Counted from the first letter of the stretch, positions 3 through 30,440 are shown. The stretch is DNA of 41,920 nucleotides from Planctomycetota bacterium (GCA_029259795.1 JAJDEM010000044.1:1-41920); one strand, 5' to 3'. Numbers and translations are program-made. The notes: a model not told the origin generated them from the letters alone.

Positions 3-1655
3 AACGCATTCGCCGGCACGGGCAAGGTCGAGGAGAGCGCCCGGCACCTGAAGCTCGCGCGCGCGAAGGCGCAGACGATCGACGACGAGAACTTCGGCCT
101 CGCACTCAACGACACAGCGATCGAGATCGCCCATCGGGCAGGACGACACGCAGACGCCGTCACAGCAGCCCTGCTGGCCGCAGACGCCCTGCAGCGCAGC
201 TACAGGCAGCTCGCGGACGACGAGCAGGCGGGTGCCCGGGAGCGCTGGGCACGCGGGTTGACGCGTGGCGTCCTCTCCGCGGCCAAGCTGGGTCGGGCAG
301 ACGACGCGTTCCAGCTCATCGAGCTGAACCGCGCCGGCGCCTTGCGCCGCGCGCTCGGCGGGACGGATCGTGTGTACGGCGCGCTGCTCGATCCCGCACT
401 CCGAGCCGAGGAGGCTGAAGCGCGTGCGCAGGAAACCTCCGCGGTGGACCGCCTGCGCGCGGCCCGCGGCGGCGATCTCTCGGCCAAACAGCTGAAGGCC
501 CTTGAAGGGGAGCTGCGCGCCGCACGGGAGCGCCTCCACGATCTGGACCGCCGCGTTCAGCGCGGCGCGGCAAGCGCCCGCGACGTCACCGCGCCTACGC
601 TGCCGACCCTCGCTGAGGTCCAGAAGGACATGGCGGCCGACGAGGCGCACGTCCTCTACTCCATGGCGGGCGAGGCGGCTGTCGCCGTCGTCGTCACCAA
701 GAAGACCAAGCGCGTCGTCGAGCTCGGCCCCAGCGCCATCCTTCGTGATCTCTGCGAGGACCTCCTTGTGGACTACGAGGGGACCATCGACCGAGAACGG
801 CTCATCGAGCTGGTTCAGCTCGTGGTGATGCCGCTGCGGCTCAAGAACACGCTGCGCCGCGTGCGTGTCTCCCCCAGCGGTCCCCTCGGCTACGTGCCGT
901 TCTCCTTGCTGTTTCCCGGGCACGAAGTCGTCCTGGTTCCTTCGGCCGCTACCTATGCGCTGCTGGCGGAGCCGTCGGCGAAGGGAACCGCCCGCGTCCT
1001 CGCGCTCGGCGACCCTCTCTATGCCGAGAAGGGTGAAGCCAGCGTGCTGCGCGGAGCACGCGCCGGGCGGAGCCTGACCCGACTCCCGGCGACCAAGGCC
1101 GAGGCCGAAGCCATCGGGGACGATGTGTTGCTGGGCGCAGGCGCCACCGAGGCTGCCCTGCGCAAGACCCTCGGCACGCAAGCCCACTGGCGCGCCGTCC
1201 ATCTGGCCTGCCACGGCCTGGTGGATCCTGAGCGGCCGATGTTCTGCTCCCTGGCGCTGACCCCGGGCGACGGCGACGACGGCTTCCTGACGGTACTCGA
1301 GGTCATGCGCCTCAAGGTCCCGGCCGACCTCGTCGTGCTCTCGGCGTGTGAGACGGGTCGCGGCCGCGTCGTCGCTGGCGAGGGCATTCTCGGACTGACG
1401 CGAGCCTTCATGCTGGCGGGCGCGCCGCGCGTGCTCGTGAGCCTTTGGCAGGTCGACGATGAAGCGACCCGCATGCTCATGGAGCACTTCTACACGGTGT
1501 GGAAGGCTGGGTCCGTGGGTCCGGCCGAGGCACTCGTGAAGGCACAGAATCACGTGCGCACCTACAAGCAGCCTGGCAAGGCCGGTGGTGCGAGCAAGCA
1601 GCCGTACAAGGACCCGCGTTTCTGGGCGGGCTGGGCCCTCTGGGGCCTGCGCTAG
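3..1655 (+). CDS. CHAT-domain (caspase/HetF-like) protein, 5'-truncated by the window edge
   Basis: The frame is open from position 3 (NAFAGTGKVEESARHL...) into ORF 258..1655. CHAT motifs: AVHLACHG (catalytic His), DGFLT, LVVLSACETG (catalytic Cys), VSLWQVDDEAT, PRFWAGWALWG. Confidence 0.92.
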   Translation, partial: NAFAGTGKVEESARHLKLARAKAQTIDDENFGLALNDTAIEIAHRAGRHADAVTAALLAADALQRSYRQLADDEQAGARERWARGLTRGVLSAAKLGRADDAFQLIELNRAGALRRALGGTDRVYGALLDPALRAEEAEARAQETSAVDRLRAARGGDLSAKQLKALEGELRAARERLHDLDRRVQRGAASARDVTAPTLPTLAEVQKDMAADEAHVLYSMAGEAAVAVVVTKKTKRVVELGPSAILRDLCEDLLVDYEGTIDRERLIELVQLVVMPLRLKNTLRRVRVSPSGPLGYVPFSLLFPGHEVVLVPSAATYALLAEPSAKGTARVLALGDPLYAEKGEASVLRGARAGRSLTRLPATKAEAEAIGDDVLLGAGATEAALRKTLGTQAHWRAVHLACHGLVDPERPMFCSLALTPGDGDDGFLTVLEVMRLKVPADLVVLSACETGRGRVVAGEGILGLTRAFMLAGAPRVLVSLWQVDDEATRMLMEHFYTVWKAGSVGPAEALVKAQNHVRTYKQPGKAGGASKQPYKDPRFWAGWALWGLR

Positions 1656-1741: not shown

Positions 1742-2974
1742 ATGTACGAGCGCTACACGGCCTTCTTCCACCTGCGTGCCGTCGCGGGCCAGGGGGCGAT
1801 GTCGGGCGTACTCATCCTCAACGAGTACATCGCGCGCAAGGAGCTCGGCGCGACGCGCTGGCAGATCCTGGCGCTCCTGCTGATTCCGGCCGGGGCGCAG
1901 CTCATGGCCGTCGTGTGGAACCCGGCCAGTAGCAAGGGGCCCATTGCCCGCCGACCGTTTCGAGTCCTCGGCATGGGCCTGCATGCCCTGCTGTTCCTGC
2001 CGCTGCTTACCGGCGGCCGCTGGACCCCGGGGCTGTTCGTCGCGCTGACAGCCACGGTCGCCGTCGCGCAGATGCTGCTGGTTCCGCTGCAGAACGCCAT
2101 CCTCGCGCGGAACTATGGCGAGTCGCACCGCGGCCGACGCTTCGGTCGGGCGGTCGCCATCCAGAGCCTTGCCCTCGTCGTGGTCAGCGTGCCCATCGGG
2201 CTGTGCCTGGATCGGGAACCCGACGCTTGGACCTGGGCGTATGCCCTCTCGGGCGCCTTCGGCCTCTTCGCCTACCGCCAGTGGGGCAAGCTTCGCCGGC
2301 GCCGCGCCTCACAGGATGTGAGCGGACTCTCCGAGCACGGATCGCCTTGGAACGCGCTGTTTGGCGATCGCTCCTTCCTCGCCTTCGAAGGCTGCTTCAT
2401 GGTCTACGGGCTCGGGTTCCTGGCGTTGATGCCGATCCTCCCGCTCTTCCTCGTCGACGAAGTGGGCGTGTCCTACGGCGACGTCGGTCTCGCCCGGGGT
2501 GCCGTATTCTGGATCGTCATGATCGTCACCGCTCCCCTTGTGGGGTGGCTTGCCGATCGAATCGGCATCCTCCGGCTCGGCGCCATGGGCTTCCTCTGCC
2601 TCGCACTGTTCCCGCTCACGATGATCCTGCTGCCGAACCGACTCGGGCTGTTTCTCGGATTCGCCGTCTTCGGGCTCGCCATGTCGGCCGTCAACGTGAC
2701 CTGGAACCTCGGGCCGATCACGCTGGCACGAGGTCGCGACCCGATCCCCTACCTGAACGCGCACCTCTCCCTGGTCGGCGTCCGCGCCATCATCGGGATG
2801 ACGGCGGCGACCGCTCTCTATGGACCGCTCGGCAGCCAGGGGATCTTCGTGGGTGTGATCGGCCTCGAGATCGCTGCGGCTGTGCTCATGTTCTGGGCCG
2901 CGCGCGCAACAGGCCGCCGCTGGCGCGTCGACGCCGAGGCGGCGCAGGTAACCCTGCCGCAGCCCCCGCGCTGA
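1742..2974 (+). CDS. MFS transporter
   Basis: 410 aa with about 12 hydrophobic segments in two halves; MFS motif A-like GWLADRIG in the second half. Confidence 0.85.
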   Translation: MYERYTAFFHLRAVAGQGAMSGVLILNEYIARKELGATRWQILALLLIPAGAQLMAVVWNPASSKGPIARRPFRVLGMGLHALLFLPLLTGGRWTPGLFVALTATVAVAQMLLVPLQNAILARNYGESHRGRRFGRAVAIQSLALVVVSVPIGLCLDREPDAWTWAYALSGAFGLFAYRQWGKLRRRRASQDVSGLSEHGSPWNALFGDRSFLAFEGCFMVYGLGFLALMPILPLFLVDEVGVSYGDVGLARGAVFWIVMIVTAPLVGWLADRIGILRLGAMGFLCLALFPLTMILLPNRLGLFLGFAVFGLAMSAVNVTWNLGPITLARGRDPIPYLNAHLSLVGVRAIIGMTAATALYGPLGSQGIFVGVIGLEIAAAVLMFWAARATGRRWRVDAEAAQVTLPQPPR

Positions 2975-2989: not shown

Positions 2990-4501
2990 CTACTTGCCTG
3001 CGGCCTCCGCCGCGAGCGCTTCAATCTCCTCGATCCAGGCCTCGGCCATCTCGACGACCTTCGGATCCGAGTGGTTGACGGCCTCCTTGAGCGCGGCCAG
3101 CGCGCCCTTGTCGCCCTGGGCGAGCTCGCCCAGGGCATCCGACGCCTTCTCGCGCACGACGGCGTCATCGTCGCGTAGCGCCGCACGGAGCATCGGCACG
3201 GCCTCGCGCGGCGCGTAGTTCATCAACCCCTGCACGACGACCCGGCGCACGCCCACGTTGTCATGGCGCAGCGCATCGCGCAGCGTGTCGGCCACAGCGA
3301 AGCGCCCATCGTGTGCTCCGGCAAGGAGCCGCAGCGTCATCGCGGCGGTCTGCCACTGCGCCTCCTCGTGGGAGCGAAACATCGCCTCGAGTGTGGGCAC
3401 GACATCCTCGGCCCGCTTCGCAATGCTTGGCACCATGCGCATCGCCCGGTCACGCCAGAGCACCTCGGAGGAAGGCAGGGTGGCCAGGAGCGCCGGAAGC
3501 AGTGTCTCCTGGGGAACCAAGCGAAGCTGGAGGAACAACGAGACTGCTCCCATGCGAACCTGCGGCAGCTCGTCCTTCAGCGCGGCCAGCAGGATCTCCT
3601 TGGCATCGGGGCGCTTGGTGAGGAAGCGCCACGCGGCCCCCTGGGCATTCACGCGCGAGTTGATCACCCCAACCAAGGCCCGCTGCGCGACGGGATCGTC
3701 GGGGCCGATCTGGATGAGCGCGGACACCACGCCGTAGAAGTCACCGCCCTTCAACAGGAAGTCTGCGAAGAGTGGGATCAGGCTTCGGCCACGCGTGCCC
3801 AGCGAGCCCACGGCTTGACCGAGGTTTCGAACAAGGACGCGGTACTTCCCGTTCGGGAGTGGCGTCAGCATCCAGCGCAGGAACGACTCGATGTCGGCGC
3901 CACTCCTGGCGCTGTCGAGCACGAGTGCCGCCACCCACGGCAGATACAGCGAGGACTCGTTCGCCCGGGCCCAGGCTTCGAGGCCCCGACGCGTGTCCGG
4001 CGGGAGCGGCACGAGCGCGCGCAGCCAGCGCAGGACCGGGTGTTGCCCGTAGCGCCGCTCTGGAGCGGCAAGTCCGCGCAGGCAATCGAGAAGACCGGCC
4101 GCAAGCTGCGGCTTGAGGTCCTCGAGCGGCGCAAGAACCTCGTCGAGGAACGCCACATACTCCCGGTGCGCGTAGTTGATCGATGTGTTCTCGAGCGCCG
4201 CCATCAACTCGCAGATGCGCTCGGGGTGCGCGCGGATCCACGCGGTGAGCTCCGCGCGTTCCTCGGGCTCTAGCGTCTGGTCCAGCCGCCCCATCAAGGC
4301 ATCAGCGGATCCTGCCTGGGGCGCTTGGCGAAGGCCCGGTCCGGCGTCGGCTTCGCGGGGCTGCGCCTCGCGCTCCTCCTCAGCCTCCGCCGGCGTGTCG
4401 GCAGCGTCGGGCTCAGGCACCTCGTCGGAGCCTAGCAGCCAGACCAAGAGCCCGATGACGACCCACCCAAGCAAGACGATCGGAATCAGACGACCGCGCA
4501 C
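2990..4501 (-). CDS. Membrane-anchored HEAT-repeat protein
   Basis: GTG at 4501 with a GGAGGG SD 7 nt upstream. N-terminal TM segment, acidic linker, and C-terminal HEAT/PBS-lyase repeats (LKDELPQVRMGAV, LRHDNVGVRR, LRDDDAVVREKASDALG, NHSDPKVVEMA). Confidence 0.8.
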   Translation of the reverse strand: MRGRLIPIVLLGWVVIGLLVWLLGSDEVPEPDAADTPAEAEEEREAQPREADAGPGLRQAPQAGSADALMGRLDQTLEPEERAELTAWIRAHPERICELMAALENTSINYAHREYVAFLDEVLAPLEDLKPQLAAGLLDCLRGLAAPERRYGQHPVLRWLRALVPLPPDTRRGLEAWARANESSLYLPWVAALVLDSARSGADIESFLRWMLTPLPNGKYRVLVRNLGQAVGSLGTRGRSLIPLFADFLLKGGDFYGVVSALIQIGPDDPVAQRALVGVINSRVNAQGAAWRFLTKRPDAKEILLAALKDELPQVRMGAVSLFLQLRLVPQETLLPALLATLPSSEVLWRDRAMRMVPSIAKRAEDVVPTLEAMFRSHEEAQWQTAAMTLRLLAGAHDGRFAVADTLRDALRHDNVGVRRVVVQGLMNYAPREAVPMLRAALRDDDAVVREKASDALGELAQGDKGALAALKEAVNHSDPKVVEMAEAWIEEIEALAAEAAGK

Positions 4502-4573
4502 CAGCCAACCCTCCAAGGCTTTGCAACGGACGGATTGTAGGCGGAACGACTCGCCGCGCGGACAGTGGGTGCG

Positions 4574-5659
4574 TTACTTGGCTGCGGGGCGCGGGAGCGT
4601 CCAGGCGTGGACCACGCCCTCGTGCAAGGCCACGGCGTAGCGCCCGCTGGCAGTGAAGGACACCGTGCTCGGCCGCTTGCCCTGGATTGGAGCGAGCGCG
4701 GGCGCCTCGCCTGCAAGCGCGCGCAGCGCGAGGCTCCCATTGTGGAGGCCGAGCAGAACCAAGCCTCCGTCAGGCGAAACCGATGCGGTGACCGTGACCG
4801 CCTTGAGATCCGAGAAGGTGGTCGTAGGCGTGAACACCACCTTCGTGGCCTCGGGCTTGGGCTCACCGCCCCACCCCTTGCTCCAATCCTTCACCTTCAC
4901 CACACGGCCGGTGGTCGGCCAGATCGACGCGCTGGTCGAAAACAACTGCGAACCGACGATCCCGGTCGCGTCGGGCAAGAACGCCGCGTACCAATCCGCG
5001 GCGCCCGGTCCCGAGAACTCATGACGCGTCTTGCCTGTGCCTGTCTCCACGAGAAGGCAGTCGAGGTTTCACCCGTCAGCGACGCCGAGGACCGCCAGCG
5101 CCGTGGTCGGCCCAAACACCACCCGCAAGACGGTGCGCTTGCCGCCGACGCGTCGAGTTGCGAGCACGCTGCCGTCCTTGACGGCCGCTGCTGTGAGCAC
5201 ACCTGTGGACGCGACGCTGATCAAGCGCTCGCCATCGGGCGAGAACGCGAAGCCGACAGGCCGCGCCTTGCGCCACAGAATCTTCTGCGTCGAGCGATCC
5301 AACACGAGGACTTCCTTGGCGGTCGCCCCAGCTAGCCGGCGCCCGGTCGGGTCGACAGCGACGCGGGTCACGGCCGACTCGCCAAGGCGGACCGCGAGGG
5401 TCGGACCGTGCCCGATACGCCAACCGCGGAGGAAGCCGTCACTCGTCCCCACGAGCAGCGCCTCGCCGCTGTGATCGGCAGCCAAGGCGGTGACGGTTCC
5501 CTCGAGCGCGATGCGCTGTGCTGCGATTGCCGGTGCGGCCGGGGCAGGCTGCTTGGCGGCGACCTCAGCCTTCGTTGCGGGCGGCTCGTCATCGGCCACC
5601 GCTCGCTGCAAGGGGAACGCGCACGCGAGAGCGGCGAAACCGAGGCAGAGCACGCGCAT
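4574..5659 (-). CDS. Secreted WD40/YVTN-like beta-propeller protein with an in-frame UGA at 5071-5069 (recoded or nonsense-mutated)
   Basis: ORFs 5069..5659 and 4574..5050 are in the same frame, joined by TGA AAC CTC GAC TGC CTT CTC. Signal peptide present. Propeller-blade repeats occur on both sides of the stop (VAVDPTGRRLA, FAFSPDGERL, AAFLPDATGI, SVSPDGGLVL, VSFTASGRYA). Confidence 0.75.
5038..5059 (-). promoter_or_regulatory. SECIS-like stem-loop downstream of the in-frame UGA
   Basis: Minus strand UGCCUUCUC-GUG-GAGA(C)AGGCA: 9 bp stem with one bulged C. The apical loop starts with GU, 18 nt after the UGA. Confidence 0.35.
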
Positions 5660-5754
5660 GGCAGATCCTCCCGAGACGAGCCGTGTTCTACCAGCCTGCC
5701 AGGGTCAGGCAGGTCAGCGCGTGTGCCGGCCCCAACACCCGGAGCCTGGACGAG

Positions 5755-6201
5755 CTACCCGTCCGCTGCGGGCCACCAGTGGTACTCGACATCCGGCTCG
5801 GACTCCGGAGGCGGGCTGACGCCGTACTGGAACACTTCGAAACCGCGGGCCTCGTAGAAGCGGCACGCGCCTGTGTTCTTCTGGTGCGTGAAGAGCCGCA
5901 GCCCTGCGGGCGAGAGCTGCTTGGCATGGCCGAGCAACGCGGAGCCGACGCCTTGGCGCTGCCGCTCCACGGCGATGTAGAGCCTATCGAGGAAGTCACC
6001 CTGCAGCGCCAGGTAGCCGGCGATCCTGCCATCGATCTCTGCGACCCAGAGCTCGTTCTCAGCGACGATGACGCGAGCAAAGTAGGCACGATCCTCTGCC
6101 TCGGTGTGCGCCTCGAGGAAGGTGTACGTCACGGCCATCACCGCGCGCCAGAGGGTCACGACGGCTTCGCTATCAGCAGCGGTATACGGGCGGATCTGCA
6201 C
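5755..6201 (-). CDS. GNAT family N-acetyltransferase
   Basis: GTG at 6201 preceded by GAGGAG. Acetyl-CoA-binding motif RQRQGVGSALL and NTGACRFYEARGF. Confidence 0.9.
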   Translation of the reverse strand: MQIRPYTAADSEAVVTLWRAVMAVTYTFLEAHTEAEDRAYFARVIVAENELWVAEIDGRIAGYLALQGDFLDRLYIAVERQRQGVGSALLGHAKQLSPAGLRLFTHQKNTGACRFYEARGFEVFQYGVSPPPESEPDVEYHWWPAADG

Positions 6202-7647: not shown

Positions 7648-8475
7648 ATGTCGCACTACCCCCCCACCCTTCCGCTCGCCGACTGGCAACCGACCCGCGA
7701 CACGCTGCATCGCTACGCGCGCATCCTCGGCAAGGTCCGTGGCCGCTACATGCCGGCCTCCAAGCACTGGTGGCACATCACGTTGTCTGTCTGTGCGCGC
7801 GGCCTGACCACGACGCCGTTCCCCGTCGGTACGCAGACGATCGAGCTGACGTTGGACCTGGTCGCGCATCGGCTGGCCATCGACAGCAGTGCCGGTTGGT
7901 CGGCTGCGCTGCCCCTCGTGGGCCAGAGTGAAGTCGGCGTTCGCGAGTGGATCGACGCCAGCCTCGAGAGTGCCGGCATTCAGCAGGAGTCGGACGTACT
8001 CGCGGCGTTTGAGTCCGATGAGGTCCAGCCCTACGACACCGAGGCGACCGGCCGCTATCGAATGGCCCTGGCGTGGATGGACGCCAGCCTCAAGGCGTTC
8101 AAGGGCGGCCTCCGCGAGGAGACCAGCCCGGTGCACGTCTTCCCGCACCACCTAGACCTCGCGGTCAACTGGTTCTCGGGTCGCCTGGTGCCGGGCAAGG
8201 ACCCGGCGGATGCGGAGAGCTCCGACGAGCAGATGAACTTCGGCTTCGTCACCGGCGATGGCTCGATCGATGACGCCTACATCTACGCCACGGCGTACCC
8301 CGCGCCGGAGGGCTGGGCCGACCTCGCGCTCGCAGCCCCTGCCTTCTGGCACACCGAAGGCTGGACGGGGGCGATCCTGCCGTACGACGCGCTCGCAAAC
8401 GCCGACGATCCGGACGCGGTGCTGCTCGCCTTCCTCGAGGCGGTGCAGACCCACGGCAGCGCGCTCATGCGCTAG
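7648..8475 (+). CDS. DUF5996-like protein
   Basis: Family-typical TLHRYARILGKVR, HWWHITL, GLTT, PVHVFPHHLDLAV, FSGR, GFVTGD, YATAYPAP. SD GAGAGGGA upstream. Confidence 0.75.
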   Translation: MSHYPPTLPLADWQPTRDTLHRYARILGKVRGRYMPASKHWWHITLSVCARGLTTTPFPVGTQTIELTLDLVAHRLAIDSSAGWSAALPLVGQSEVGVREWIDASLESAGIQQESDVLAAFESDEVQPYDTEATGRYRMALAWMDASLKAFKGGLREETSPVHVFPHHLDLAVNWFSGRLVPGKDPADAESSDEQMNFGFVTGDGSIDDAYIYATAYPAPEGWADLALAAPAFWHTEGWTGAILPYDALANADDPDAVLLAFLEAVQTHGSALMR

Positions 8476-9698
8476 CCGGCGCTCGGCGCCTCGGGGGCCA
8501 GCGCCCGCCAGGCATCGAGGATCCCTCGCAACAGCGCGACGCGCCGGCCCGCCCGCCCCCGCTGCGGATCGTGGGTCGCCTCGATGCCGGCAGCGGCGGC
8601 GTGCGCCTCGATCGACCCCGCCTTGCGATTGGTCAGAAGGCGCGCGGTAGCGCTCAGGTCGAGGAACGGGCCGGGCAGCGTACCCCCGCAGTCCTGGAGC
8701 AGGCGCAGCGCGTGGTGGCCCCATGACGCCACGACATCCGTAGGCCGCAGGAAGTCCACGAACGCCGAGAGCATCTCCTCAACCGATCCTCCCGCGAGGA
8801 GCTCAGCGGCCGAGAACCCCACGTAGCCGGGGATGTTGGGCGCCAGCGGGTGACGAGGTGCCACAAGCGACGAGAGGTGCTCGCCCGTGCTGGGGCGCAG
8901 CGCCGTCCAGACGATCAGCTCGTCCCCAAACGCGCGCTCGGACGTGCCGTGCGGCCACGCGTTCGCGTCGGCCATGACGAGGACAAGGTCCTCGTAGCGA
9001 TCGCGGACTTCTACGGGCAGTCGCTCATGCGGCGTGAGCTTCGGACGGGTGCGCAGTCGGGGGACGCGCTTCTCCGGTGCGGCGGCTGTCTGCTGCGCTC
9101 GGATCTGTGCATCGACCATGGCATCCATCGGGCGACGCAGCGCACGGAAGCGCTCCGGCTCGCCTTCGATCGCGCCCAGGACATGCATGAGTGCCTCGAT
9201 CGTCGAGACGTACTCGTCGCAGGGCTCGCGCCGAATCCTGTAGTTGGACGGCTCCGGCGCATGGAACGCGTAGCACGGCAGCGCGGCCAGGCGCGGGTTG
9301 TCGCGCACGAGCGTCCGGGCCTGCGACCAGGTGCCGTCCACGACGACCAGGGTGACCGGCGCAGGCGGCGGCTCGCGCAGGATGTCGCGTGCATCCGGCC
9401 CCGGATAGAGCAGCACCGGCGGGCGGGTCGGGTCGGCACAGGCCGCCGCGAGCACGTCGCTCTCATCCCACGCCGTGCCGACATGCACACTCGCCTGCGG
9501 CAGGCAGAGGCTCGCCATGTGCGCCGTCCCGATCGGCATGCCGGCCTCGCGCGGGTGCTGGAGGATCACGATCCGTGAGCGTGTCTCGATCGTGGTGATG
9601 GCCGCGCAGTAGCAGACGCTCACAGGCCGCTCGCAGCGCGAGCACATGGCGCGCCCGGTCGTGGCTTCGGCAGGGGACGGGGGAGGGGTGGCGCTCAC
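8472..9698 (-). CDS. DTW-domain tRNA-uridine aminocarboxypropyltransferase (TapT/YfiP-like) with a C-terminal extra domain
   Basis: N-terminal CSRC...CYC, LQHPRE, LLYP, VVDGTW (DxTW), YRIR, STIEA, followed by a ~180-aa C-terminal extension. Confidence 0.85.
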   Translation of the reverse strand: MSATPPPSPAEATTGRAMCSRCERPVSVCYCAAITTIETRSRIVILQHPREAGMPIGTAHMASLCLPQASVHVGTAWDESDVLAAACADPTRPPVLLYPGPDARDILREPPPAPVTLVVVDGTWSQARTLVRDNPRLAALPCYAFHAPEPSNYRIRREPCDEYVSTIEALMHVLGAIEGEPERFRALRRPMDAMVDAQIRAQQTAAAPEKRVPRLRTRPKLTPHERLPVEVRDRYEDLVLVMADANAWPHGTSERAFGDELIVWTALRPSTGEHLSSLVAPRHPLAPNIPGYVGFSAAELLAGGSVEEMLSAFVDFLRPTDVVASWGHHALRLLQDCGGTLPGPFLDLSATARLLTNRKAGSIEAHAAAAGIEATHDPQRGRAGRRVALLRGILDAWRALAPEAPSAG

Positions 9699-28511: not shown

Positions 28512-30440
28512 CTACGAGTCGCTCTTCGTCCCGAGCTCGGTCTCGAAGCCGACCCAGACGGTGTGCGCGTCGTCGCCTGAGAGGAACTTCGCCATGTCGT
28601 AGCTGTACTGGATGCGCAGCCGGATCGCCGGGTTCATCGTATTGACCAAGCGGATCTTCGACTGGTTGAACGCGATCGGAATGATCGCCAGGGCAGAGAT
28701 TCGCTGACGGTCGTGGCGGAGCGGGTCCGCCTCCCGCCCGCTGAAGGTCGACGCCCCGCTCGTGGCGTCGAAGCCGACGAACGAGTCGCGCGCCCCCGTG
28801 GCGTAGTCGTAGCGCACACCGACGGCCATGTTCCGCGTGACCGATGTGACGGCCTGCGCGTAAAAGCCCCAGTCTTCGAGCTCGTCCTTCGAGAGAACGT
28901 TGGGGTTGCCTCCGCCGTCGACCGCGCTGTAAGCGTCTGTCCGAATCCGGCGGTGCATGATCTCCGCAACGAACATCGTGCGGATGCCGTTGCGGGAGGC
29001 GTCGACGATGTCGACGCGCACGTCGCCGCCGAACACCGTGGTGTGCCCTTCCTTGCCCGTGTTGTTCGGGCCGAACATGCCGGACCCGCCGATCTGCATG
29101 GCCGTGCAACCATTGACCGGAAGGACATGGGCGACGCGGCCGTGCCAGACGAGATCGGAGAAGTTCTTGCCCTCCAACTTCACCGAGTGCCAGATCTTGG
29201 AGAGGCCACCCATGCTGAAGCCGGTAAGCTCGGCCTCTGCCTGATCGAGGTCTTGGGCTCCGATATGGATGCGCAGCCGGCGGGCCACATCGTGGATGGC
29301 GAAGTCGGCTCCGATCGACTTGAAGCCGTCCTTGCCGAGGACGCGCGTGCGGATGATCGGTGAGTCCACGAAGTGCCACGCGCCGTCGGTGTACATGTTG
29401 TGGATGCCGAAGGGAGCCCGATACGTACCGGCCGCCAAGGCAAACCCCGAGGCCACCTCGGAGAAGAGCGAGGCCTCCTCGACGTCGATTTCGGTCAGAT
29501 CGCCGGACACGCTGTCGACGACCGAGTTGAAGCGCAGATCGCCGCCCAGGTACTCATCGAAGAGATCCGCTCCGGCCTGCGTCGTCACGACATGCGCGAA
29601 GAACCCACGCGACTTGGGGTCGAGTTCGCCCTGCTGAAGGATCGGAAGCCGCTTGTCGTCGGTGCTCGAGCCGCCATACATGATCCGAGCCGAGGCACTC
29701 ACGTACCACGGGACGCGCATGCCCCCGAGCTGGATGGCGGACGGCGAGACGCTCTCGGCCGCCGGGCCCGCGGCAGACGAGTAGCGCGAGAAGCCCACCG
29801 ACTGCGCACGCGGCATGGGCGCGCCCGTCTGCGGGAGGCTGCGGGCCAGGGGTCCGCCGCGGGAGTCGGCGTTGTACAGGCGAGACGGGGTTCGGCTCCC
29901 GCGGGCCGCGATGGAGCCTGCGTATGGCCGCGCCTCATGGCCCAGCATGCCGACCCCTCCCGAGTTGCCCTCGCGGAAGAACGGCTGACGCGGCGTGCTT
30001 CGACCGCGTCGCGGGAGCGTGTCCAGCATGGGCAAGGAGAACCAACGCCGTTCGAATTGACGCGGCCGCGCGAGCCGCTGCTGGGCCTCGATCACGGCCG
30101 CGCCATAGGCATCTTCGTAGGCTTGTCGCACCGACGGCGCCACGGGCCGCACGGCAGAGTGGCCCGGTGTGCGAACCAGGGGCTGCATCGGCACACGCCA
30201 GCCATGGTCCACGACGCGTGCGGTAGCCCTGGGGTCGGCAACGACCCCATAGGTGATCCCGCCAGCGCCGTTCGGCGGGCGGGAGGGACAGGGGATGTCA
30301 TCCCGAATCGAGTCCCGGACGTACTCCACCACAGGCCCCTCCTCATCAGCGAGGGCTACCTGCACCCCATGACCCCCAAGCACTAGCACCCCTTGAATCG
30401 CAAGGGCGTATGCCAACGTCGAATGCAGCAGTCTCATCAC
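28512..30440 (-). CDS. Putative outer-membrane beta-barrel/porin-like protein with a long Pro/Arg-rich N-terminal region
   Basis: Signal peptide ending ALA-DEE; amphipathic strands and motifs VEEA, PFG.HN, FGPNN.G, WGFYAQ, GVRYDY, LRIQYSYD, VWVGFE. Confidence 0.7.
   Translation of the reverse strand: MMRLLHSTLAYALAIQGVLVLGGHGVQVALADEEGPVVEYVRDSIRDDIPCPSRPPNGAGGITYGVVADPRATARVVDHGWRVPMQPLVRTPGHSAVRPVAPSVRQAYEDAYGAAVIEAQQRLARPRQFERRWFSLPMLDTLPRRGRSTPRQPFFREGNSGGVGMLGHEARPYAGSIAARGSRTPSRLYNADSRGGPLARSLPQTGAPMPRAQSVGFSRYSSAAGPAAESVSPSAIQLGGMRVPWYVSASARIMYGGSSTDDKRLPILQQGELDPKSRGFFAHVVTTQAGADLFDEYLGGDLRFNSVVDSVSGDLTEIDVEEASLFSEVASGFALAAGTYRAPFGIHNMYTDGAWHFVDSPIIRTRVLGKDGFKSIGADFAIHDVARRLRIHIGAQDLDQAEAELTGFSMGGLSKIWHSVKLEGKNFSDLVWHGRVAHVLPVNGCTAMQIGGSGMFGPNNTGKEGHTTVFGGDVRVDIVDASRNGIRTMFVAEIMHRRIRTDAYSAVDGGGNPNVLSKDELEDWGFYAQAVTSVTRNMAVGVRYDYATGARDSFVGFDATSGASTFSGREADPLRHDRQRISALAIIPIAFNQSKIRLVNTMNPAIRLRIQYSYDMAKFLSGDDAHTVWVGFETELGTKSDS

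Follow-up and report, generated by a model that had tools for sequence, protein, structure and literature searches.

This study concerns a gene of a Planctomycetota bacterium carried on a stretch of DNA of 41,920 nt (hereafter the window, on the whole of which coordinates are counted). The gene lies on the minus strand, its 5' end bearing the higher number, and the window's own genome, G000, is 89% complete and assembled in 417 contigs. We found that positions 5659..4574 very probably encode a single pre-protein of 361 residues in which the UGA at codon 197 would be read as selenocysteine (Sec, U), and that this protein would represent a new selenoprotein family. The frame runs from the ATG at 5659..5657 to the TAA at 4576..4574 and is interrupted only once, by the TGA at 5071..5069, which bears out the claim of the initial annotation that two neighbouring open reading frames (ORFs) form one frame with a single UGA. 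The whole gene thus occupies 361 codons with the UGA as codon 197, orthologs share the same architecture, and the read-through product would be a protein of 361 aa with U at 197 (...LAVLGVADG-U-NLDCLLVETGTG...). The comparative data reported here support the earlier proposal that Sec read-through would give an exported propeller of this length with a U-x3-C pair, and none of the three findings named in advance as speaking against it (no Sec machinery in the genome, homologs with Trp, Arg or Gly at the position, reads with a sense codon) was observed.

The in-frame UGA is shared by distant relatives

We compared the eight sequences for which DNA was available, namely those of the window's own genome, of G001, G003, G005 and G020, of the two metagenome contigs L047 and L048, and a short form from G372, which together span two Planctomycetota orders besides the two metagenome contigs. 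A TGA was observed at the same alignment column in all eight, at protein identities of 22-44% and in a frame that stays ungapped; conservation of the UGA at one position, by which selenoproteins are commonly judged, is therefore seen in 8 of 8. A six-frame search of 61 related genomes yielded four orthologs of 37-43% identity, each with exactly one in-frame TGA, in the block LAVLG(V/I)(A/E)DG-TGA-NLDC(L/H)LVE, and across the family the TGA falls where conservation is highest, in DG-U-N(L/F)DC-x-LVE. The full-length and near-full-length relatives are 33-44% identical to the window protein; the G372 short form is 25% identical to it and 22-29% identical to the other members. Two DNA searches left the codon open as TGN. 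The block pattern matched two metagenome contigs, with TGA in both, and a looser pattern matched five of 401 genomes of the phylum, with TGA in all five, the reversed control pattern giving no match. Conservation of the TGA at one column is far beyond chance, and it is this comparative evidence, not the hairpin of a single sequence, that we regard as decisive.

The short form, from the other order, came out of a profile search of these 401 genomes. It has 202 residues, a hydrophobic N-terminus and the block AVAVDDG-TGA-NFDCYLVE, and in the alignment with the long form it covers blades 4-7, which suggests that the Sec-bearing blade and three further blades make up a functional module. At its locus (L053:1486-2094, corresponding to G372:C1, about 3487112-3487720), blades 4-7 come directly after the N-terminal anchor, and the TGA is codon 60.

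In a library of 1.84 billion representative proteins the family is present only as halves. Six further N-terminal fragments, from lineages beyond those with DNA, all end exactly at ...(V/I)LG VADG, and two C-terminal fragments have the Val of LVE as their first residue. The database, pattern and phylum searches gave no full-length form in which Cys or another residue takes the U position, and no Cys form appeared among the best 150 matches in the 1.84 billion representatives. A Cys-coded DNA pattern gave nothing new, and another protein search returned only five generic WD40 matches. Homologs with Trp, Arg or Gly at the site, which the initial annotation had named as counter-evidence, did not turn up, the position being TGA in 8 of 8, though no Cys form was seen either. 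The nearest non-Sec WD40 paralogs, from the order of G372, show RGEA where the short form has NFDC, and their residue at the U column is Leu or Ser; they are uninformative on a Cys ancestor.

Translation probably continues across the UGA

Conservation of the protein in frame was observed on both sides of the UGA, with the invariant block LAVLG-x-x-DG-U-NLDC-x-LVE, and 38 of the 60 invariant columns of a five-way alignment lie downstream of U. The six codons between the TGA and the following GTG keep N-L-D-C-L-L, and five of their six variable columns are third codon positions. This GTG stands 7 codons after the TGA in G000, G001, G003 and L048; the same Val codon is GTC in G005, G020 and L047, in which the first in-frame start-like codon comes +77, +28 and +105 codons on, respectively. 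A downstream ORF called with translation table 11 would begin in the window at the GTG at 5050..5048, which is the apical loop of the hairpin described below, and the C-terminal half has neither a signal peptide nor a Shine-Dalgarno motif of its own; the earlier remarks on the missing Shine-Dalgarno motif and on the position of the GTG were thus correct. Since the restart codon is not conserved, the C-terminal half would be made only by read-through. In the AlphaFold model, residues 198-205 form the third strand (C) of blade 4, paired with residues 188-195, and therefore a split gene would cut a blade and leave an unexportable half without a conserved start. A reassigned genetic code was considered and rejected as the explanation, because TGA is also the ordinary stop of the MFS gene at 1742..2974 in the window and of the G003 and G372 orthologs.

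A kept hairpin follows the UGA

A hairpin resembling a bacterial selenocysteine insertion sequence (bSECIS) was found at 5059..5038 on the minus strand, exactly where it had been described: it starts 9 nt after the UGA and presents its GU-starting loop 18 nt after it. It consists of a lower stem, a bulged C, a 4-bp upper stem and the apical loop GUG (5050..5048), with 9 pairs in all and a minimum free energy (MFE) of -9.7 kcal/mol. The bSECIS model, as summarised in a recent review (PMC13188914), has a loop of 3-9 nt with G in the first two loop positions, an upper stem of 4 bp or more, a distance of 16-37 nt from the UGA and an MFE of at most -7.5 kcal/mol. All eight hairpins of the family agree with these published values, having loops of GUG, GUC or GGUCG, a spacing of 17-18 nt, 7-10 pairs and MFEs of -8.2 to -14.2 kcal/mol.

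The architecture of the hairpin is maintained among the relatives. In an alignment of seven sequences, 87.5% of the cells pair, vs 32-61% when the partners are slid, and one pair alternates between G-C (four sequences) and U-A (three sequences), the observed score being reached by 14 of 500 shuffles. When codons were redrawn according to the genes' own usage with the protein held fixed, the specific hairpin survived with P of 0.026-0.162 per sequence, and it is present in 7 of 7. In the short form of G372, which is lower in GC, different codons rebuild a 9-bp stem with the loop GGUCG. On these alignments, the hairpin appears to be kept beyond what the protein demands. A search of 4400..5800 against Rfam gave no family at E up to 1.

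The host genome appears to decode UGA as selenocysteine

The initial annotation had proposed a search for the sel genes, and in G000 we detected SelA (219 bits, its gene cut by the end of contig C196), SelB (314 bits) and tRNA-Sec (68.8 bits in Rfam; called by ARAGORN as tRNA-SeC with anticodon TCA), so that the machinery is not absent; selD, which was not found over the cut-off, is taken up below. The four other genomes with the long form have tRNA-Sec (4/4), SelB (4/4) and SelD (3/4), and SelA was found in 38 of 40 genomes of the order, G003 being one of the two without a match. In three relatives, selD directly adjoins selA (L049 in G005:C57, L050 in G020:C39 and L051 in G001:C111). In these relatives selD is itself a selenoprotein gene, with an in-frame TGA in the context SAGG-U-AAKV.

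Again, four genes of AhpC/TSA type in G000 carry an in-frame TGA at the position of the active-site Cys, in the contexts FTFV-U-ATE, TPG-U-TIE, GEW-U-PYC and STG-U-GPC (loci L073, C122:18943-19338; L074, C384:725-1108; L075, C292:2835-3275; L077, C124:2574-2918). Three of the four have a hairpin with a 3-nt, G-first loop 17-21 nt after the UGA, the fourth being weaker, and the hairpin of the propeller gene is of the same style. These genes indicate that G000 has a predicted selenoproteome of several members and decodes UGA as Sec elsewhere. For FdhA, only a sub-threshold molybdopterin-type match of 124 bits without a stop was obtained in this genome.

Fold of the protein and the Sec/Cys site

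The AlphaFold model agrees with the earlier claim that propeller blades continue on both sides of the UGA. It has seven four-stranded blades in a ring, with 28 strands, a mean predicted local distance difference test (pLDDT) score of 87.6 and a predicted template modelling score (pTM) of 0.82. With Foldseek, at least 500 matches of E up to 0.001 were WD40 structures, among them 5yzv_B (E 2.6e-16, target-normalised template modelling score 0.79); WDR5 and G-beta were also matched. In Pfam, WD40 (PF00400) scored 25.2 bits vs a cut-off of 27, and all 12 propeller-type matches were sub-threshold. The window protein, as modelled, is a divergent WD40 member by fold and not by a curated sequence threshold. 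NCBIfam gave no family for it at E up to 1, and a relative gave only sub-threshold BamB matches. A BamB/PQQ-type propeller was considered and rejected on the scores (TIGR03300, 22.2 bits vs 285.2, in a relative; PF13360, 19.7 vs 27.6), as was a selenium-binding propeller of the SELENBP1/SBP56 type, for which no Pfam match was obtained.

The proposed Sec codon (U197, 5069..5071) falls in blade 4 (residues 176-217, 5009..5134, delimited by the AlphaFold secondary structure and the WD40 fold matches). In the model, U197 sits in the two-residue B-C turn between strands 188-195 and 198-205, a turn that WD40 topology would place on the upper face, where ligands bind. Cys201 (codon at 5057..5059) follows four residues later on strand C; it is the partner of U197 within U-N-(L/F)-D-C and the sole Cys of the predicted mature protein, which thus has one Sec and one Cys, both invariant in all eight sequences. 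The best-conserved part of the protein runs from blade 4 into blade 5 and contains DG-U-N(L/F)DC-x-LVE, F-S-G, (Y/F)-A-A and a Trp. The pLDDT falls to about 80 at residues 191-200 and 211-220, a dip of the model that may be compatible with a mobile site and proves nothing.

With some hesitation, and at somewhat less than even chances, we propose that the Sec/Cys pair is the working site, either as a redox-active selenol or as a ligand for a soft metal or metalloid. A bolder proposal, which we put forward only speculatively, is that this would be the first WD40 selenoprotein and an obligate one, in which the exposed Sec serves covalent capture or metal or metalloid binding within an exported adaptor and not as a thioredoxin-like redox centre, with blades 4-7 as the conserved module that also occurs alone behind a membrane anchor in another order.

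The course of events would then be as follows. With the UGA in the ribosomal A site, the hairpin at 5059..5038, presenting its G-U apical loop 18 nt after the UGA, would recruit SelB·GTP·Sec-tRNASec, as in the standard bacterial pathway. Sec would be inserted and translation would continue to the TAA, after which the signal peptide would be cut behind AVA at residue 22 and the protein exported over the cytoplasmic membrane, where it would fold into a seven-bladed WD40 propeller. The selenol may form a selenenylsulfide with Cys201 or with the thiol of a substrate or partner, or may act as a soft-metal or metalloid ligand, and the Sec/Cys site would be carried on a protein-binding scaffold and not on a thioredoxin fold. 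If selenium were lacking, the ribosome would presumably stop at the UGA and leave a fragment of 196 residues with 3.5 blades.

Alternative explanations and points against selenocysteine

Other explanations of the interrupted frame were weighed against Sec insertion. That the gene is a pseudogene, or that the stop reflects a recent nonsense mutation or an assembly error, might be thought from the lone stop in this frame, which comes from a thinly covered contig (depth about 4.8) of a metagenome-assembled genome (MAG), yet the same TGA is found in eight independent assemblies at 22-44% identity with intact, conserved downstream frames, and the available contig has no differing letter. Because the TGA is shared by all eight and the database halves break at the same residue, sequencing error, recent nonsense mutation and a decaying pseudogene are excluded, which disposes of the alternatives raised at the outset, and we give this explanation a negligible chance. 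It is also very improbable that two polypeptides are made, with a stop at the UGA, re-initiation of the C-terminal 3.5 blades and assembly of the halves into a propeller. Gene callers split every database entry at the UGA, and the GTG 7 codons past the TGA in G000, G001, G003 and L048 would offer a start; this codon, however, is GTC in the three other long forms G005, G020 and L047, whose next start-like codons are 77, 28 and 105 codons on, the residues from TGA to GTG are conserved as amino acids, the frame is ungapped in 8 of 8, and a C-terminal half lacking signal peptide and Shine-Dalgarno motif could not follow an exported N-terminal half.

A read-through that is programmed and independent of Sec, by a near-cognate tRNA for Trp, Cys or Arg, with the hairpin slowing the ribosome or playing no role, is improbable too, if less so than re-initiation. 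It would accord with a hairpin that is unspecific at this GC content and with the want of a Cys homolog to indicate a chalcogen at the site. Against it stand the presence of tRNA-Sec and SelB in all five genomes with full-length forms, the match in style between the propeller hairpin and the hairpins of bona fide selenoprotein genes (Prx and SelD) in this lineage, and the invariant Cys four residues away, which, together with the lack of any sense-codon variant in eight lineages, fits Sec better than a leaky stop. To our knowledge, conserved programmed read-through of UGA is rare in bacteria.

Several observations nevertheless weigh against the assignment of Sec. The initial annotation rightly cautioned that hairpins are frequent in DNA of such GC content: an equally good one follows 211 of 2058 codon positions (10%) in six full-length genes of the family and 58 of 867 TGA trinucleotides (6.7%) in the window. 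Nor is the folding of the 48 nt behind the TGA remarkable, since a fraction of 0.03-0.67 of synonymous recodings, and of 0.20-0.93 of other stretches taken from the gene, fold at least as well. Stability of the hairpin, being ordinary in comparison with recodings, other windows and background, was therefore set aside as evidence. The covariation amounts to one compensatory pair, possibly a single evolutionary event, and the product of about 1e-8 over the recoding probabilities overstates the case, as the sequences share ancestry and the structure was already known when the test was devised. Agreement with the bSECIS model alone is weak and unspecific evidence; the kept architecture is the better evidence. 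Homologs with Cys, which customarily support a new selenoprotein family though they do not define one, were not found in the searches described above. No selD over the cut-off was found in G000 (89% complete, fragmented), and G003 (92% complete, fragmented) likewise had no selD over the cut-off and no SelA match. In G000, selD was probably lost at the contig break beside selA, as selA runs off the contig end and selD adjoins selA in relatives. A direct bond between U197 and C201 would need local rearrangement, because residues i and i+4 of an extended strand lie about 13 Å apart. Finally, the gene context supports no function, since the neighbours differ at every locus (see below). Taken with the conserved UGA, these points leave insertion of Sec at codon 197 as the explanation that we strongly favour.

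Expression signals and read support

A Shine-Dalgarno-like GGGAGG lies 7 nt upstream of the ATG (5667..5672), and motifs of the GGAGG type also precede the ATG in four orthologs. Residues 1-22 (5594..5659) are a predicted Sec-type signal peptide, read by eye, ending in ...AVA and followed by DD; the pattern of A-x-A and then acidic residues is seen again, by eye, in orthologs. In the AlphaFold model, residues 1-25 have a pLDDT below 50, and an Ala/Pro/Lys-rich linker of low confidence comes directly after the predicted signal peptide. The possibility of a lipoprotein via Cys13 was rejected by eye, as in most orthologs no lipobox is formed ahead of it and in L047 the Cys itself is missing.

Read support at 5069-5071 was to be checked according to the initial annotation. 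A contig from run X1, possibly that of the source sample, spans 4748..5659 with identical letters, and it shows TGA at the site and not a sense codon; the UGA site lies outside the coverage of the second of the two DNA runs listed, both of one study. A scan of the window for frames with a single TGA and high third-position GC content on both sides yielded, besides the propeller gene, only its own antisense frame and a frame at 29242-29244 on the plus strand, the latter Ser/Arg/Trp-rich and resembling antisense or noise.

Distribution and gene neighbourhood

Of the 40 genomes searched in the order, 5 have the long form, and they fall into 2 of 24 genera; the searched assemblies of two congeners, G002 (70% complete) and of G004 (88% complete), lack it. 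In the order of G372, 1 of 21 genomes has the short form, and a search there for more returned only the self match, the others being generic WD40 repeats without the motif. Orthologs within one GTDB genus are only 37-44% identical, and the accessory gene DUF5996 of the window is 55% identical in the single congener having it, which hints at fast evolution outside the Sec block.

A conserved gene neighbourhood was considered and rejected, as Pfam assigned unrelated families to the neighbours at each locus. Seven neighbours in the window gave no tblastn match at E up to 1e-3 to six related loci. The neighbours in the window are of HEAT, GNAT, MFS and CHAT type, and elsewhere CarboxypepD_reg repeats, an alpha/beta hydrolase, DUF4185, PALP, SpoIIE, a DDE transposase, MR_MLE and an apiosidase-like protein were observed. 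Immediately downstream of the propeller gene and on the same strand, 2990-4516 encodes a protein of 508 residues that has a hydrophobic segment at its N-terminus and HEAT repeats at its C-terminus; its TTG start is 57 nt past the propeller stop. A weak HEAT-repeat neighbour of the G020 ortholog is on the other strand, and thus co-function with the HEAT protein is not supported. A protein with carboxypeptidase-regulatory-like repeats is encoded beside the propeller gene, on the same strand, at L043:1326-3911 (G005; Pfam) and at L048:~520-1539 (by eye). Proteins with a CHAT domain (258-1655, plus strand), DUF5996 (7648-8475, plus) and a DTW domain (8472-9698, minus) are also encoded in the window, and none of them recurs beside the orthologs.

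Comparison with known selenoproteins and propellers

With reference to the literature, 119 selenoprotein families and subfamilies are listed in Table 1 of a 2026 review (PMC13188914), and no WD40 or other propeller entry is found in that table; the initial annotation likewise knew of no such type among selenoproteins. In the main texts of PMC13188914, PMC12013277 (deep-Sep) and PMC13326102 (BSepDB), supplementary lists aside, none of the terms propeller, WD40 and Planctomycet appears. Full-text literature searches gave no bacterial propeller selenoprotein, though an earlier listing as "hypothetical protein" in supplementary lists is possible. A study of Planctomycetes selenoproteins names fdhA and fmdB (PMC4807772). 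The recoding mechanism is standard; what would be new is the protein family and a fold that is not among the known selenoprotein families listed in that table.

With a Sec-containing WD40 propeller, selenium would be seen at work in a wider set of protein structures than hitherto. All database entries of the family are split in two and labelled "hypothetical" or "WD40 repeat", and Planctomycetota MAGs thus hold probable selenoproteins that homology-based pipelines have overlooked. The apparent lack of Cys forms would make the family a useful case for what selenium does beyond sulfur, and its eight natural hairpin variants are a ready set for studying recognition by SelB in this phylum.

Among the systems in Table 1 of PMC13188914, thiol-oxidoreductases of the envelope and periplasm (thiol:disulfide interchange, DsbA-like, DsbG-like and Prx-like UxxC proteins) are alike in being exported, in having one Sec near a Cys, in the UGA with its hairpin and in their likely selenenylsulfide or redox chemistry. 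They differ in having a thioredoxin fold, U-x2-C and many Cys homologs, whereas the window protein would be a WD40 propeller with U-x3-C in a blade turn, for which we found no Cys form and no Pfam thioredoxin-type or NCBIfam match. TsoA (LULAxC, NF045695) has the only motif in that table with U-x3-C spacing; there is no sequence relation to it, NCBIfam having given 0 families for the window protein (E up to 1). The TonB-dependent receptor of the FCYXU type and the GSU2204/MtrB-PioB-like barrel, from the same review, are precedents for Sec in all-beta envelope proteins, but these are membrane beta-barrels as opposed to a soluble propeller, and NCBIfam gave no sequence similarity to them. The seven-bladed WD40 fold itself is shared with prokaryotic WD40 propellers, such as the Thermomonospora WD40 domain (PDB 5yzv), and with WDR5 and G-beta, which, unlike the protein proposed here, are cytoplasmic scaffolds that contain no Sec.

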